From sequence record PP213477.1: 47,926 nucleotides of DNA; one strand, 5' to 3'. This DNA is from Escherichia phage vB_Eco_ZCEC08. Of this stretch, positions 2,671 through 46,109 are shown one piece after another. The notes beneath the pieces were generated by a model. That model saw only the letters and a program-made list of their open reading frames with translations. It made no database searches and had not been told where the DNA came from. A program made the position numbers and the translations under genes. Every line of letters starts with the position of its first letter. Position 1 is the stretch's first letter.

Positions 2671-2868
2671 ATGCATTTCAAATCACTAAATACCATAAGG
2701 AACGAGATGGTTGGTGGCAAATATAAAAACCACAGAGACGAAGTAGTAACCGTTGTTAATGTTGTTGGCGCTGGCGGTGGTTATCAGGTCCATTTTAATT
2801 ACGGCATGCCATACAATGTGGTTTGCGGACTTGGCAAGTTCAGGCAGCGATACCCGCATAAGGTTTAG
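2671..2868 (+). CDS. hypothetical protein (65 aa)
   Basis: internal ATG (residue 17 of ORF 2623..2868) preceded by AGGTGGAGTG. Confidence 0.45.
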   Translation: MHFKSLNTIRNEMVGGKYKNHRDEVVTVVNVVGAGGGYQVHFNYGMPYNVVCGLGKFRQRYPHKV

Positions 2869-2889
2869 CCATATACCATCCATGCTATA

Positions 2890-4340: not shown

Positions 4341-5271
4341 CGCAAGACTTCCACAGCCGCGCATATCGCAGAGTCTTACCGACCCATTAGGCGCTGCGGC
4401 TCGCCTGCCGAAGATGGACAAGGTGATAACGCGAAAATACAAACAACTCATGGCTCGTGCGCTCGAGTTGTTTCGCACTATTCCGAGCAGTCAGGCTAAC
4501 GCAGAGTCAAGTGGCCTGTATTTCTACGATTTCAGTAGTGCGCGGGCCGCCACTTTTATGGATGAGTTGCAGGCGCTGATTGACGAGATTCTGCTGGAAG
4601 GTGATGATTTCGGTCACGGCAGGATGTGGGCCAATGTGTTCATCGGTGATGCATATCAGGCGGGAACGCAGAAGGCAAACTCAGAGCTATCAAGTCTTTC
4701 TCCGGTTTATGCTGAACAGCGACCGATTGCTGCGATACTCTACAGTGAGCCTTACCTGAACAGGCTGCAACTGGCGTACACATCCGGATATTCAGACTGG
4801 CGCGGACTGAGTGATTACTCCCGTCAGCAACTGGCATCCGTCATCATGGAAGGTATTGCCCGTGGTGCTAATCCTCGCGATGTTGAAGCTGATATTGTTA
4901 AGCGTGTGGATGTGTCTCATAGCTACGCGAAACAGTTGGCGCAGACTGAAATAACCGGAACGCTGCGACAGGCAAACAGGCGGGAGGTCATTGAGGCACG
5001 CGAAGAGCTAGGCATTGAGACGGTGATGCTGTGGCAGTCGGCATTGATGCGCACAACCCGCCAGACGCACGCGGCGAGACACGGCCGGTTTTACACGCCA
5101 GAAGAGATTGACACGTTTTATAGTGAGAATGGCAATAGATATAATTGCCACTGCGCACAGACTCCGGCTTTGTTAATGGGTGGTAAGCCGGTCATTCTTG
5201 AATCGTCGCAGGGAAGGCTTGATAAGCAGCGAGAAGCATGGCAATCAGCCAACAAAAAGCCCTCCAAGTGA
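4321..5271 (+). CDS. head morphogenesis protein (Mu F / SPP1 gp7-like)
   Basis: start moved to ATG overlapping portal stop; [16 protein letters not shown] resembles the F-family motif. Confidence 0.6.
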
Positions 5272-5290
5272 GGGCTTGGTTTTATTTCGA
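5256..5290. terminator. bidirectional rho-independent terminator
   Basis: AGCCCTC-CAAGT-GAGGGCT then TGGTTTTATTT; stop codon of the upstream gene lies in the hairpin; convergent genes on both sides. Confidence 0.55.
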
Positions 5291-5360
5291 TGGCTTATCG
5301 CATTTACTGCACCAACTATTAAGGCACATGCGCCCGCAATGCTTGCATATAGGCCACATA

Positions 5361-6011
5361 TCATTCCTCCAGTTTTACGCCGGGAATCTTGCCTGCCGCG
5401 ATGGCTTCATAAATTAGCTTGGCCTCATCCTCGCGCTTGTAATCTTGAGCTACCATTTCTAACACCGCGCAGATAGACTCAAGTACAGCCTCATGCTTCT
5501 TTTCTGCTTCTGTGCGTAATGGCTTTAGGCTTTCAGGAACGAAGCAGCATGATCGAACAGCACCACCCTCATCCCAGTAGCAAACAGCCACATCGTTTCC
5601 GTCCGTTGTTGTTTTGTGTGCCACAACTTCCATTTCAGTGCCGGCATCAGGAATCCAGGCATTGCGGTATCCTAACTTTGGATTGATGAAGAATTCTACT
5701 TTTGCACCAACTGGAGGTAGGCCTTCGCCGCTCCATGTTGGCTTTTGTGATGCTGCGAGTGCGGATTCGTATTGGCTTCTAGTTACCATTGCCTTCGTAC
5801 TGTCGCATGATAAAACAACATCATTATCAACTCGCCAGTATCCAACTAAACCCTTTCCTGTTCTGTGTCTCCAGCCAAATCCATTGTATCTTGGGTCATC
5901 ATAACGCCAGCAACAGAAATAGCCGTCGGCATCTTGCGTAACCACCACCCAGTTTTCGTTCCACCCACCACGCTTAGGTAATTCTTGAACTAACAGTTCG
6001 ATAAGTTTCAT
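5361..6011 (-). CDS. hypothetical protein (216 aa)
   Basis: ORF track; last gene of a minus-strand cassette. Confidence 0.55.
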   Translation of the reverse strand: MKLIELLVQELPKRGGWNENWVVVTQDADGYFCCWRYDDPRYNGFGWRHRTGKGLVGYWRVDNDVVLSCDSTKAMVTRSQYESALAASQKPTWSGEGLPPVGAKVEFFINPKLGYRNAWIPDAGTEMEVVAHKTTTDGNDVAVCYWDEGGAVRSCCFVPESLKPLRTEAEKKHEAVLESICAVLEMVAQDYKREDEAKLIYEAIAAGKIPGVKLEE

Positions 6012-11075: not shown

Positions 11076-11553
11076 ATCACAAATCATGCGCGTGATTGTC
11101 AATCATCCAGGGGCAACGCGTGCATATATTGAAAAGCATTGCGGAGGTAAGCATTCAAGCACCACAACGCACCGTTTACATGAGATGCTTGCGCTTGGAT
11201 TCATTCGTCGAGAGAAGTCCGTGATTCGTGGTGGTAAGTGGCAGTATAAGTATTTCATCTCTGAGGATGCAGCAGGTATTGATGATGCGATTAAGTGCCA
11301 TTTGCTTGATAACGCTGGCGCAGAGGTGAAAGAAATCAGTGCAGCCACTGACCTTGATTACCGAATTGTAAAAAGCCGCATCCGCATTATGTTTCATAAC
11401 GGTGATGTGACGCGAAGCTATGACCACCACAAGAAGCTGTGGCGTTACTCATGGAAGGAGCAGGAAGTAAATATGAGCAATCTGTTTAATTCACTTCTTC
11501 GCAGCGCAAGAGGTCATTATGGGAAAAGCGAAACGCAAGAAGCAGGAGTATGA
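11065..11553 (+). CDS. hypothetical protein
   Basis: internal ATG (residue 19 of ORF 11011..11553) overlapping upstream stop. Confidence 0.5.
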   Translation: MDYKSQIMRVIVNHPGATRAYIEKHCGGKHSSTTTHRLHEMLALGFIRREKSVIRGGKWQYKYFISEDAAGIDDAIKCHLLDNAGAEVKEISAATDLDYRIVKSRIRIMFHNGDVTRSYDHHKKLWRYSWKEQEVNMSNLFNSLLRSARGHYGKSETQEAGV

Positions 11554-11678
11554 GCAATTACCGCCATGCAAAATGTCAGGAATGCCGCAACAGGAGGATG
11601 TGATTCTCACCGAAGCTGAGTGGCGCAAGGTGGCGAGGGTGCAAATCATGTTCCGCAAACTTGCTGAGGATGTACTAA

Positions 11679-12083
11679 ATGAGATGGGCTATTAAGCATA
11701 AATCTGGCAGAACTCTGTTTGTGACATCAGATGAGTTTATTGCCAATAACCGTAAAGAGATGGGCTGGATAGTGGAGGAAGTGAAGATGACGAGTAGAGA
11801 GCAGTTTGAAAAAGAAATGAGTGACAAGTATGAGTGGTTCAGTGATGCGATCGCTTGTGCTGATTTTTGCGGTGACGATGATGATGGCTACTATGTTGGC
11901 GGTGATTACCTCTATTATGGGAAGTCATGTTCAGAGGCTTTGTTTTGGTTATGGCGAGGATGGCAGGCATCGCGCGCAGCAATTGAGATTCAAGCGTGTC
12001 CATGTCCAAACGATCATGGCCCGAATGTTGATGACCATTATCGCGAGCAAATTAATAACGCAGGCTTAAAGGTGAAAAAATGA
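11679..12083 (+). CDS. hypothetical protein (134 aa)
   Basis: ORF track. Confidence 0.5.
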   Translation: MRWAIKHKSGRTLFVTSDEFIANNRKEMGWIVEEVKMTSREQFEKEMSDKYEWFSDAIACADFCGDDDDGYYVGGDYLYYGKSCSEALFWLWRGWQASRAAIEIQACPCPNDHGPNVDDHYREQINNAGLKVKK

Positions 12084-12406
12084 TTATCCAGTTAAACGAC
12101 ATCATGAAAGCAGATATCATTCAGCTTGAAGATTATGACATGCAACTGGCGTTTGAAATCGAAACTGTCGAGCGTCAACTGCAGTATGCTGATAAGAAGA
12201 ATGATCGCGTCTGGCACGAGAAAGCACTTAAGGCGCGCGACCACATGAAGCGCACGCGAGCACTCATTAAAACTCGTCTTGATAAGCTATATTTTGGCGA
12301 AGAGCGAATGCTGCATGGCGCTATACTGGCGCAAATCCGCAAGGAAATGCCGATTGGTAAGTTTATGACATACGTTCATCGCGCAAAGCAGGAGGCTGGG
12401 TTATGA
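12080..12406 (+). CDS. hypothetical protein (108 aa)
   Basis: ORF track; ATGA overlap with upstream gene. Confidence 0.5.
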   Translation: MIIQLNDIMKADIIQLEDYDMQLAFEIETVERQLQYADKKNDRVWHEKALKARDHMKRTRALIKTRLDKLYFGEERMLHGAILAQIRKEMPIGKFMTYVHRAKQEAGL

Positions 12407-12516
12407 TGGACTTCCTGAACTGGTTCGCTGACCACTGGATTTTAACTTTATTCTCCTGCTATTTATTATTTGCTGGCCTAGAGGAATTGATTAGAGCATG
12501 GAGGGGGAAGCCATGA
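12403..12516 (+). CDS. small hydrophobic peptide (37 aa)
   Basis: hand-translated MMDFLNWFADHWILTLFSCYLLFAGL...; overlaps upstream stop. Confidence 0.3.
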   Translation: MMDFLNWFADHWILTLFSCYLLFAGLEELIRAWRGKP

Positions 12517-12659
12517 TTCCATTACTGTTGATATTATCAGCCTACGCATTCGCGCGGGTATTTGAGGCCGATACTCTGTACCAGATGATTTGTTATGGCG
12601 CGCTGTTCTGCCTATCAGGTGCTGCGCTTGCATTTATGGATGATGTGATTTCAGAATAA
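12513..12659 (+). CDS. small hydrophobic peptide (48 aa)
   Basis: hand-translated MIPLLLILSAYAFARVF...GALFCLSGAALAF; ATGA overlap. Confidence 0.3.
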   Translation: MIPLLLILSAYAFARVFEADTLYQMICYGALFCLSGAALAFMDDVISE

Positions 12660-12714
12660 CTCCGTATATCTTTTGTTCATCATGGGCTGCTATCATTTAA
12701 TCAGGAGGTAGCCC

Positions 12715-12837
12715 ATGAACATAATCCCTATCACTTACTTTCTCACGCTATACGCACTCACCAATTCGCCATTGTTTGCACTGGCTACCGCCTCGTGGTG
12801 CTATATCTCCCTGTGTTATAATTCGACCACAAACTAA
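12715..12837 (+). CDS. small hydrophobic peptide (40 aa)
   Basis: hand-translated MNIIPITYFLTLYALTNSPLFALATASW...; AGGAGG upstream. Confidence 0.3.
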   Translation: MNIIPITYFLTLYALTNSPLFALATASWCYISLCYNSTTN

Positions 12838-12852
12838 CCGTGGAGCTACGCG

Positions 12853-14606
<1,754 letters not shown>

Positions 14607-23192: not shown

Positions 23193-23236
23193 AATCTACA
23201 CCACAAAATAATCGCTGTCAACACCTGTGATATAAT
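23193..23236. promoter_or_regulatory. back-to-back promoters: minus TTGACA-17-TAGATT and plus extended -10 TGATATAAT
   Basis: hexamers read directly; plus promoter precedes the major tail gene; minus promoter points into the non-coding region and tRNA. Confidence 0.45.
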
Positions 23237-24585: not shown

Positions 24586-24633
24586 AATCTACATCACCAC
24601 CCCGCAGGTGTCAACACCACTGAGATGATATAA
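24586..24633. promoter_or_regulatory. back-to-back promoters: minus TTGACA-17-TAGATT and plus extended -10 TGATATAAT
   Basis: same architecture as 23193..23236; drives the minus moron operon and the plus tail chaperone gene. Confidence 0.5.
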
Positions 24634-24654
24634 TCAACATCAGTCAAATTCAGG

Positions 24655-27740: not shown

Positions 27741-31544
<3,804 letters not shown>

Positions 31545-44013: not shown

Positions 44014-44635
44014 AGATAAAAAATAAAATTAACGCAACACAAAACAGGTCTAACCAGCAACAATAGCTACCACACTTAATAACTGGTCAGACCACCATCC
44101 CGTATCTGATATATGTGGATGGCGCCTGTCGTTCAATTTGAACTCGATTTTTACCTAATTTACCGTATATTTATCGGTCGGTTTTTTGCATAAATAATTG
44201 ATTTATAGTATTTTACCTGTTTTACCGTAACTCTAAGGAGTATTTTCATCATTAAGAGTGGTAGTATATTAATTGGTCTAATTTTAAAGAAATCTAATAA
44301 AATCAATATATTAATATAAAAGAATAGCTTACTTACTTCTATAGTATTTACCTGGTAAAACCGGTAACTCCTCCGAAGGCCGCGTCATTACTGGATTCAT
44401 TTTTACCGCCTGTAGGTAAATACAGTAGTTTTCAATCCGTTATTGCTCTTCTAAGCTGTTGATTACCGGTACTTTATTTGGGAAACCGGCATTTACCGGT
44501 TTTTGTGGTGTGATTAATAATCGAGCAACTGGTCCTGTTTCACCAGAACCAACTAATGCGACGCCTGAAAATCATGTTGACGTAGAATCATCATTGATGT
44601 AGATTGAACTAATCGAAACAAACGAGGGTGAAGAG
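44014..44635. repeat. AT-rich non-coding region with iteron-like TTTACC(G) repeats and ACCGGT palindromes; candidate origin
   Basis: direct TTTACC copies near 44148, 44159, 44211, 44221, 44347, 44401; inverted copy near 44415; ACCGGT near 44360, 44465, 44495; no ORF of 60 aa or more. Confidence 0.35.
44577..44605 (+). promoter_or_regulatory. sigma70-like promoter TTGACG-17-TAGATT
   Basis: hexamers read directly; about 30 nt upstream of the ATG at 44636. Confidence 0.45.
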
Positions 44636-44782
44636 ATGAAAATCAAAGACCGAGAAGAATTTGAAGATGCTCAGGCTATGGCGCGCATTGCAGTTGAGCG
44701 CACAAATAACAGTATACCTGCCGACGCATTCTGGAACGCAGCAATGCAGGCGTTAATCTCAGCATATGGCTTAAGCAAATGA
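44636..44782 (+). CDS. small hypothetical protein (48 aa)
   Basis: hand-translated MKIKDREEFEDAQAMARIAVERTNNSIPADAFW...; GAGGGTGAAGAG upstream. Confidence 0.4.
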   Translation: MKIKDREEFEDAQAMARIAVERTNNSIPADAFWNAAMQALISAYGLSK

Positions 44783-44874
44783 CAGGCGCATCATTCGAAC
44801 TTATCGCCAGTCTGGTTATCGTGGCATTCGTCATTATCGCAGTGGCAGTTTCAAAATCAGGGTATAAGGAGTAG
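44779..44874 (+). CDS. small hydrophobic peptide (31 aa)
   Basis: hand-translated MTGASFELIASLVIVAFVIIAVAVSKSGYKE; ATGA overlap. Confidence 0.3.
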   Translation: MTGASFELIASLVIVAFVIIAVAVSKSGYKE

Positions 44875-44962
44875 AAAAATGAGCAACTGGCATAACGAAC
44901 ACATCATGCAGTGGTTTCGCCGTCGCATTAAGTCAATTACTAACTCTTATGAGGTTTAACAA

Positions 44963-45412: not shown

Positions 45413-45766
45413 ATGAGTGAAGTTAATTACCAGGCACTGCGTGGGATAGCAAAACAAGCAACACAAGGCGAATGGGTCGCATTTATTTCGCAGGGTACTG
45501 GTACGTATGCGGTGCATACGCCAGGTGATAAACGATGTGAAGACATTATCAAATGGACCGGCTTTGATGGACAGAAAAACGCAAAGAACAACGCTCGTTA
45601 TATCGCAGCTTTAAACCCAGCAGTGGTTCAGGCACTACTGGATGAACTGGAAGCTCAAAGTAAACGCATTGCAGAACTGGAGTCTGCATTAAATCGCCAT
45701 TATGAGATCCCTGACGTTTATGATATGGCGATAAAGCAATTCGAAAGCCTGGCTAAAAGTGAATAG
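45413..45766 (+). CDS. Ead/Ea22-like family protein (third paralogue)
   Basis: ARYIAALNPAVVQALLDELEAQSKRIAELE matches the Ea22-type IAA..P..V.ALLD.LEA motif. Confidence 0.5.
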   Translation: MSEVNYQALRGIAKQATQGEWVAFISQGTGTYAVHTPGDKRCEDIIKWTGFDGQKNAKNNARYIAALNPAVVQALLDELEAQSKRIAELESALNRHYEIPDVYDMAIKQFESLAKSE

Positions 45767-45829: not shown

Positions 45830-45937
45830 ATGAACAACCACAAACGACGCCGATACACCACTGGCGCTAAAATCTTCCTTGCTGTTTATGTGCTGGCCCT
45901 GGTGGCAGCCATTGCAGGAGTTGTGCATTATGTTTAA
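45830..45937 (+). CDS. small hydrophobic peptide (35 aa)
   Basis: hand-translated MNNHKRRRYTTGAKIFLAVYVLALVAAIAGVVHYV; GGAGG upstream. Confidence 0.3.
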   Translation: MNNHKRRRYTTGAKIFLAVYVLALVAAIAGVVHYV

Positions 45938-46109
45938 CGATATCAGCGACGCAATGCAGAACATGTGGGAACGCTACTGGAACAGCATGAAGACATGTCA
46001 CTACATGATGGTACAGATAGGTAGTTACATTGAGGTTGTTCCTGACAATGGTGTGCACGACATTAAGTACATGTGCTCAACGAGGGATTATGCTAATGCA
46101 AACCACTAA
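45930..46109 (+). CDS. hypothetical protein
   Basis: internal ATG (residue 18 of ORF 45879..46109) overlapping upstream stop. Confidence 0.35.
   Translation: MFNDISDAMQNMWERYWNSMKTCHYMMVQIGSYIEVVPDNGVHDIKYMCSTRDYANANH

Follow-up and report, generated by a model that had tools for sequence, protein, structure and literature searches.

Small membrane peptides of bacteria and phages

Some of the smallest regulators of the bacterial inner membrane, AcrZ, MgrB, KdpF and CydX among them, are only 30-50 residues long, span the membrane with one or two transmembrane (TM) helices, act by binding larger membrane proteins and are often missed by annotation. Lytic and temperate phages make small, early, non-essential inner-membrane proteins of their own for exclusion or immunity, such as T4 Imm and HK97 gp15. 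Two kinds of RNA structure are known to cover the starts of genes: in the type I toxins Hok, TisB and Ldr, which are small hydrophobic peptides, the ribosome binding site (RBS) is sequestered in mRNA structure and translation is low, and in phage MS2 the replicase operator is a hairpin that encloses the start codon and is bound by the coat protein. Finally, the extended -10 element (TGnTATAAT) defines a type of sigma-70 promoter. Features that can be set beside each of these were found in Escherichia phage vB_Eco_ZCEC08 (PP213477.1), whose whole genome, a stretch of 47,926 bp from a Skatevirus-like siphovirus, is the window analyzed here. The subject is a set of six short open reading frames (ORFs). 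Three of them, ORF1, ORF2 and ORF3, lie in a row just before a prohead protease/scaffold-type gene; the other three, called p53, p31 and p35 after their lengths, lie elsewhere in the genome.

The six peptides are like AcrZ, MgrB, KdpF and CydX in size, in the predicted number of TM helices and in being encoded by short, overlooked ORFs, and these regulators are proposed as a "works like" model. However, they are host-encoded, and Pfam and NCBIfam scans gave no sequence relation between them and the phage peptides. Nor did any of the six match Imm-type or other exclusion families in Pfam; Skate, a curated member of the phage group, has a separate Imm-like gene elsewhere. ZCEC08 is a virulent Skatevirus-like phage, and the evidence below is probably best explained by six genuine, mutually unrelated, accessory small membrane-peptide genes, with ORF3 as a special case that serves as a control node.

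Six short genes under frame-specific selection

All six ORFs were found where an earlier note on this DNA had placed them, each with a Shine-Dalgarno (SD) site or an ATGA/TGATG stop-start overlap, and all are on the + strand; these signals tie each gene to its operon by translational coupling. ORF1 (12403-12516, 37 aa) overlaps the TGA of an upstream 108-aa gene in an ATGA junction and has AGGAGG 7 nt upstream. ORF2 (12513-12659, 48 aa) overlaps the ORF1 stop in another ATGA junction, preceded by GGAGG; the program-made ORF list begins it at an earlier ATG (53 aa), and the relatives favor the 48-aa start. ORF3 (12715-12837, 40 aa) has AGGAGG 9 nt upstream. The 53-aa p53 (2499-2660) starts in a TGATG overlap with a GGTGGAG site, the 31-aa p31 (44779-44874) in an ATGA overlap with no clear SD, and the 35-aa p35 (45830-45937) behind a GTGGAGG site.

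A 4-kb query around the three-ORF locus matched 214 phage records, with a top identity of 91-93%. These are siphoviruses of Salmonella, Escherichia and Shigella in the genera Skatevirus, Shuimuvirus and Caminolopintovirus. Homologous stretches were taken from IMG/VR contigs and GenBank phages, the ORF1 relatives being collected record by record. For the p31/p35 region, relatives were gathered via a 48-aa gene upstream of p31, as the 117-aa neighbor of p35 was too variable. The ratio of nonsynonymous to synonymous polymorphism (pN/pS) was computed by the Nei-Gojobori method, variable sites were tallied at codon positions 1/2/3, and the third-position excess was assessed with a binomial test.

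Conservation of the reading frames in related phages, which the earlier note had put forward as a check, was found throughout: all six ORFs are under frame-specific purifying selection. The pN/pS is 0.09 for ORF1 (7 unique alleles; variable sites 4/2/13), 0.117 for ORF2 (34 alleles; 21/11/41), 0.119 for ORF3 (32 alleles; 7/7/20, p = 0.002), 0.28 for p53 (11 alleles; 18/11/29), 0.24 for p31 (31 alleles; 17/9/22) and 0.37 for p35 (27 alleles; 17/14/26), the last dividing into 0.20 for the TM part and 0.81 for the N-terminal part. By these measures p31 and p35 appear as the least constrained of the six. The same computation gave 0.07 for the 108-aa flanking gene and 0.11 for the protease/scaffold gene. 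In both alternative frames of each ORF the pN/pS is ≥0.9 and stops are present, and the third-position excess over the six ORFs has binomial p values from 5e-5 to 0.05. Because the in-frame ratios are low, the other frames are at 0.9 or more with stops, and third positions vary in excess, all six ORFs are, as judged from the alignments, real conserved coding sequences for what are predicted to be short helical hydrophobic peptides.

Short ORFs are common: the six frames of the ZCEC08 genome hold 190 ATG-initiated ORFs of 30-60 aa, several of them hydrophobic, and one of the six peptides, p31, is disrupted in 3 of 34 relatives. That some or all of the six are chance open frames or gene-caller artefacts is nevertheless hardly credible, given the frame-specific selection and codon periodicity in all six, their conserved lengths and start contexts, the membership of three in PHROG families and the 16-22 database clusters found for ORF2 and p53.

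The hydrophobic character that had been ascribed to the peptides is also borne out, unevenly among the six. Their grand average of hydropathy (GRAVY) is 0.46-1.36, as against a mean of 0.08 (standard deviation 0.62) for the 190 background ORFs. The best 19-residue Kyte-Doolittle window scores 2.9 in p31, 2.5 in p35, 1.9 in p53, 1.65 in ORF2, 1.6 in ORF1 and 1.3 in ORF3, and membrane-spanning hydrophobicity is clear for p31, p35, p53 and ORF2. The peptides differ in design: p53 has two hydrophobic segments; p31 is one strongly hydrophobic helix; in p35 a single TM helix comes after basic residues (KRRR) at the N-terminus; ORF1 is predicted to span the membrane once (TM helix at about residues 12-26) and ends in a charged tail; and ORF3 has no charged residue at all. 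What the six have in common is composition, not sequence: an all-against-all BLASTP gave no meaningful similarity between them. Paralogy among them was excluded on this basis.

Annotation and family membership

The published annotation table of ZCEC08 has coordinates identical to those used here (PMC12001532). The peptides had been called unannotated, which is correct for ORF3 and p35, both absent from this table, and incorrect for the other four, which are listed there as hypothetical proteins: ORF1 as ZCEC08.30 (12406-12516, 36 aa from the second ATG), ORF2 as ZCEC08.31 (12513-12659), p53 as ZCEC08.6 (2499-2660) and p31 as ZCEC08.76 (44779-44874). The table passes from ZCEC08.31 directly to the gene at 12853, and from the gene at 45413-45766 directly to that at 45930-46109; ORF3 and p35 are therefore lacking in the ZCEC08 annotation. 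None of the six is un-annotated across the phage group as a whole.

The nearest known relatives are homologues in the curated record of Skate, gp35 (ORF2), gp36 (ORF3), gp60 (p31) and gp56 (p35), which have equal lengths and genomic positions; gp60 and gp56 are labelled "membrane protein". Three PHROG families, all of unknown function, were also matched: phrog_18423 by ORF2 (E = 1.9e-34, positions 1-48 of 48), phrog_35977 by p31 (E = 1.7e-22, positions 1-31 of 31) and phrog_9340 by p35 (E = 5.3e-20, positions 7-41 of 43). ORF1, ORF3 and p53 lie outside PHROGs and have no Pfam, NCBIfam or PADLOC match either, the scans giving only sub-threshold noise (e.g., AmiS_UreI at 15 bits vs a cut-off of 25). 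Database searches with ORF2, ORF3 and p53 returned solely close relatives inside the phage group, with no informative names; the 22 clusters found for p53 are all of about 53 aa.

ORF3, an overlooked gene before the head genes

ORF3 is a conserved microprotein gene that is skipped by standard gene callers. It was detected by tblastn in 205 phage records. Identity is ≥90% in 149 of these and under 60% in the other 56, among which are 46 Klebsiella phages. Most of these records have no feature annotated at the position, and a collection of 5.8 billion proteins holds just two clusters for it. In three diverged lineages of a Skatevirus-Roufvirus-like clade ORF3 is exactly 40 codons long, and it always lies directly upstream of the protease/scaffold gene at a spacing of about 15 nt, also in the Klebsiella phages and in Citrobacter phage K1M. 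Identity between the lineages is 0.60-0.72, 0.65-0.70 and 0.40-0.42 at codon positions 1, 2 and 3; to judge from these figures, a coding signature persists although third positions are the most diverged. In-frame stops are absent from 45 of 46 sequences, including that of Salmonella phage Akira, where the last residues are replaced by an insertion. In phage NX263, ORF3 has a nonsense codon (W28stop, TGG to TGA) while the hairpin and -10 box described below are intact. The AlphaFold2 model has two helices, 4-16 and 19-39, at modest confidence (predicted local distance difference test, pLDDT, 70).

The start of ORF3 is predicted to lie in an RNA hairpin (12680..12718, + strand) with a 12-bp main stem and 2 inner pairs, the 3' arm of which holds part of the SD and the AUG. 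Its folding energy is -20.5 kcal/mol (z = -3.3), a value equalled by 0 of 200 shuffles. Citrobacter phage K1M folds an equivalent hairpin (-21.1, z = -4.7), as does Klebsiella phage F14 (-25.4, z = -4.7), so that three diverged lineages have an equivalent stem, differing in sequence and length, with z from -3.0 to -4.7. Among 15 hairpin sequences compared at 9 pairs, every change preserves pairing but is one-sided (GC/GU/AU), with no double compensatory change. A larger conserved RNA structure over 12660-12870 was considered and rejected: the whole segment has z = -1.1, the hairpin alone being stable. As the RBS and AUG are locked in this apparently conserved hairpin, translation of ORF3 would be held low or switched by it. 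The buried start is like that of the Hok, TisB and Ldr genes, but ORF3 has no identified antisense RNA or family match. Like the MS2 operator, the hairpin is a stem-loop of about 12-15 bp that contains an AUG; in ORF3 it also takes in part of the SD. Unlike the MS2 operator, it may act alone or as a transcript-end or processing signal.

An ATG in the 5' arm of the hairpin opens a 9-codon mini-ORF (12682-12711, + strand; MGCYHLIRR) in frame with ORF3; this ATG has no SD before it, and the mini-ORF ends in a TAG at 12709-12711. In several relatives this TAG is TGG or CGG, making the frame continuous into ORF3, and the K1M record annotates the longer, 51-aa form.

A second signal lies at the other end of the gene; neither it nor the hairpin figures in the earlier note. 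An extended -10 promoter-like box, TGTTATAAT (12814..12822, + strand), coincides with ORF3 codons 34-36 (TGT TAT AAT, C-Y-N), and the protease/scaffold gene begins 30 nt further downstream. The motif TGnTATAAT is kept within ORF3 in 46 of 46 relatives, including the Klebsiella and Citrobacter phages. The genome has only four TGNTATAAT sites, as compared with 1.56 expected, and all are on the + strand (2883-2891, 12814-12822, 23228-23236 and 24626-24634). They lie 20-36 nt upstream of the starts of the portal, protease/scaffold, major tail and pre-tape-measure (tail chaperone-like) genes, respectively, and all four are conserved in Skate. Compared with extended -10 sigma-70 promoters, the four boxes have a perfect TGnTATAAT and no good -35, and the one at 12814 is embedded in coding sequence. 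A sigma-70 -35/-10 scan called no canonical promoter at ORF3 because the site has no -35 match. The four boxes are candidate late promoters, and the one at 12814 is probably the head-operon promoter. A head-gene transcript would then start inside ORF3, near 12829, and ORF3 itself would be the last gene of the upstream operon. The two tail-gene boxes (23228 and 24626) have a common upstream TGTCAACAC.

Since the last codons of ORF3 carry the invariant -10 box, some of the conservation seen in its sequence would come from this double use of the DNA. Synonymous diversity is 0.15-0.19 in ORF3 and 0.35-0.51 in the neighboring genes, i.e., 2-3 times lower, as expected if the DNA also bears regulatory information. 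This nucleotide-level constraint also fits a reading in which ORF3 is no gene at all and 12660-12852 serves regulation alone: a hairpin, terminator-like or for processing, would end the upstream transcript, the head promoter would follow, and the open frame would be incidental. The sequestered SD and AUG, the invariant box, the NX263 nonsense allele and the fact that neither the source record nor most of the 205 records call ORF3 would all be accommodated, and in phage ASO78B the hairpin is annotated as a rho-independent terminator (WebGeSTer) with ORF3 uncalled. Yet this is unlikely. The periodicity of variable sites (7/7/20, p = 0.002) and the pN/pS of 0.12 are those of a coding sequence, as are the 40 codons, uncharged hydrophobic composition and higher position-1/2 identity kept in three lineages, the lack of in-frame stops in 45 of 46 sequences and the consensus AGGAGG at the right spacing. 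Intrinsic termination was rejected as a role for the hairpin: the stem is followed by ACATAATCCC with no T-run, for which reason it is not a canonical terminator, and a terminator scan of 11500-13500 found no + strand site. Regulatory and coding roles are, moreover, compatible with each other. ORF3 is thus best read as a gene that also carries putative control signals. It is doubtful that hairpin, ORF3 and promoter form one device by which production of the peptide is coupled to the early-to-late switch or to membrane-located prohead assembly.

The gene that follows (12853..14139, + strand), called the scaffold gene in the earlier note, is of the prohead protease/scaffold type and DUF2213-like. 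Its product matches phrog_760 and, weakly, head maturation protease families; against DUF2213 it scores 20.5 bits, slightly under the cut-off of 22. In relatives it is named prohead core protein protease or coat protein. ORF3 is syntenic with it in all 205 records and three lineages, while ORF1 and ORF2 come and go, which could suggest a part for ORF3, possibly with ORF2, in the assembly of heads; it might, for instance, sit at the membrane and initiate or chaperone the protease/scaffold. Several observations make this very improbable. The promoter-like box inside ORF3 implies separate transcripts for ORF3 and the head genes, and the synteny is equally explained if ORF3 carries the head promoter. 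Furthermore, ORF3 is truncated in NX263, a 1.4-kb reverse-strand gene parts it from the head gene in Akira, and no structural or proteomic link was found.

The Akira insert (L010 2851-4248, - strand) encodes a 465-aa homing-endonuclease-like protein with repeated Cys/His motifs. It is bounded on one side by a hairpin resembling a bidirectional terminator and on the other by a second TGATATAAT, beside the head gene, and it alters the last residues of ORF3. The N-terminus of the protease/scaffold occurs in two forms among relatives, one of 428 aa, as in ZCEC08, and one of 470 aa, which is longer by 42 residues (MIVKIGDKWVVKSKDGSHQFGEYDTEEAAKKRLAEVEAFKH...) and begins 16 nt past the ORF3 stop.

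ORF1, ORF2 and p53 as probable accessory genes

The interval between the 108-aa gene and ORF2 is variable. Among 37 related sequences it is empty in 14 (direct ATGA overlap) and is filled by a 62-aa gene in 10, by the 37-aa ORF1 in 5, by a 61-aa CxxC protein in 4, by an 83-aa gene in 3 and by a 168-aa HNH endonuclease in 1. Each insert ends in an identical ATGA junction with ORF2. Of 152 records with the region, 17 extend over the ORF1 part. The p53 gene is flanked by an exact 13-nt direct repeat, AGGTGGAGTGATG, which contains an SD-stop-start junction and occurs at 2489-2501 and 2661-2673; its neighbors vary on both sides among relatives. ORF1 and p53 would thus be swap-in cassettes, exchanged at gene-boundary junctions.

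A plus-strand ORF at 2671-2868 (MHFKSLNTIRNE...) directly follows the AGGTGGAGTGATG junction after p53. The source annotation places ZCEC08.7 here on the minus strand (2883..2686). Because the plus-strand ORF follows this conserved junction, and its start sequence recurs past p53 in several relatives, the strand assignment of ZCEC08.7 may be wrong.

ORF2 is conserved among Skatevirus-like phages, has a more distant counterpart in Citrobacter phage K1M and is absent in the Klebsiella relatives. An AlphaFold2 model built with 14 homologues is a helical hairpin (helices 2-18 and 22-47; mean pLDDT 87.6), and the C-terminus is acidic (DDVISE). Work on the reduction of the Skatevirus seszw genome led to the deposition of dozens of genomes of viable mutants (PMC9825161). 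In one of these, seszw_200L, the ORF2 homologue seszw_11 has lost 15 codons to an in-frame deletion of 45 bp. Since this deletion is viable and ORF2 is frameshifted naturally in phage SB28, ORF2 is probably dispensable for plaque formation.

p31, p35 and the AT-rich control region

p31 is the second gene of an operon that leaves an AT-rich control region. The in-frame stops in 3 of its 34 relatives were mentioned above. A gene for an Stp-like peptide comes next: a 26-aa ORF (MSNWHNEHIMQWFRRRIKSITNSYEV; 44879-44959, + strand) with a strong AAGGAG site begins 5 nt past p31 and scores 32.2 bits (cut-off 25, E = 1e-7) against Pfam PF08133, the family of T4 Stp-type activators of anticodon nuclease. 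It is annotated in some relatives and unannotated in the source record, whose table has no gene between 44874 and 44963.

The AT-rich divergent region at 44100-44530 contains multiple TTTACC(G/T)-type motifs in both orientations, for example TTTTACCTAATTTACCGTA and TTTTACCTGTTTTACCGTA, which are 62 nt apart, and AAAACCGGTAA, which is paired with TTACCGGTTTT. These motifs are candidate operator or iteron sites. A TTGACG-17-TAGATT promoter-like site (44577-44605) adjoins the motif region.

The small size, the hydrophobicity and the one or two TM helices of the six peptides, and in p35 the basic N-terminus before a TM helix, recall lysis-timing factors, i.e., holins, antiholins, pinholin-like proteins or inhibitors of cell-wall synthesis like those of single-gene lysis. 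A gene near the p35 homologue is even called "holin" in the record of one relative, STGO-35-1. That gene, however, is the next one downstream (the homologue of 45930-46109), and its product is not hydrophobic. A complete lysis cassette with two endolysin-type genes, a 76-aa two-TM holin and spanins lies elsewhere, at about 6.1-8.1 kb (Skate record; PMC12001532), none of the six adjoins it, and no holin family was matched in Pfam or PHROGs. A role in lysis is accordingly improbable, and such a function for the six was rejected on location and the missing family match.

Possible functions of the peptides

As accessory membrane peptides, the six would insert into the host inner membrane, would be dispensable for plaque formation and would act by binding larger membrane proteins. 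Natural disrupted alleles are found for ORF3 (W28stop in NX263), ORF2 (the SB28 frameshift) and p31 (stops in 3/34), and several of the six appear from these and related alleles to be optional or tolerant of disruption. The earlier note's idea that such peptides act on the host envelope or division is plausible as a generality; nothing in the results bears on division. A Lar-like restriction-alleviation gene lies upstream of ORF1-3 in the same + strand run. The peptides thus share operons with anti-restriction genes (Lar-like and Stp-like) and not with lysis or virion modules, and for this reason a role in host takeover or in protecting or conditioning the infected cell, i.e., superinfection exclusion or the countering of membrane-associated host defences, can be put forward as a tentative possibility.

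A number of points weigh against this picture of accessory membrane peptides. None of the six has a functional-family match above threshold in the Pfam, NCBIfam and PADLOC scans, and the protective role is proposed from genomic neighborhood and analogy alone. ORF1 and ORF3 are borderline in the 19-residue Kyte-Doolittle windows. ORF3 could be poorly expressed or not expressed, as its start is buried in a hairpin of -20 kcal/mol and one relative has a nonsense codon. The constraint on p31 and p35 is weaker, with pN/pS of 0.24-0.37 and codon-position p values of about 0.04-0.05. Finally, the seszw_200L deletion is in frame, so that the viability of an ORF2 null allele is not proven by it; the rest of the region is kept in about 70 seszw genomes, and whole-gene loss is seen in none.

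Genome layout and other short frames

The layout of the group can be read from the curated Skate record. Terminase, portal and head-morphogenesis genes are followed by about 7.5 kb of small accessory genes and the lysis cassette, and then by the DUF2213-type protease/scaffold, decoration and major capsid genes and the tail genes. Replication genes lie on the opposite strand, and beyond them are an AT-rich divergent control region and a further run of small genes. An Rfam scan gave a tRNA as its sole match.

Two other short hydrophobic frames were noted. A 39-aa ORF (MICGLYASIAGACALIVGAV...; 5245-5364, - strand) overlaps the end of the reverse-strand gene 5361-6011 by 4 nt. By tblastn it is present in about 10 records of related phages, and in several of these a hypothetical protein is annotated at the position; the ZCEC08 table lacks it. 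The most hydrophobic short ORF of the genome (28737-28865, + strand, 42 aa, GRAVY 1.93) overlaps the ORFs 28213-28683 and 28559-29125 in a different frame within the tail-gene region and has no family match. It may be open by chance.

Significance

Small hydrophobic hypothetical proteins are abundant in the accessory regions of phages. The six described here are ordinary in this respect and do not point to a new mechanism; only the ORF3 node, with its hairpin, microprotein and probable promoter, might tempt a specialist to go further. ZCEC08 is under development as a therapeutic phage (PMC12001532), and a complete gene list that includes the small membrane peptides therefore matters: such peptides might change the physiology of the host or keep other phages out. 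The four extended -10 boxes place candidate promoters of structural genes where they can be tested directly, in a group whose transcription programme is so far undescribed. On the doubtful reading of one regulatory device, ORF3 would be a clade-wide, uncharged microprotein of 40 residues that more than 200 phage genomes encode and hardly any annotation lists; its translation would be gated by the hairpin, and its own codons would serve as the promoter of the head genes.

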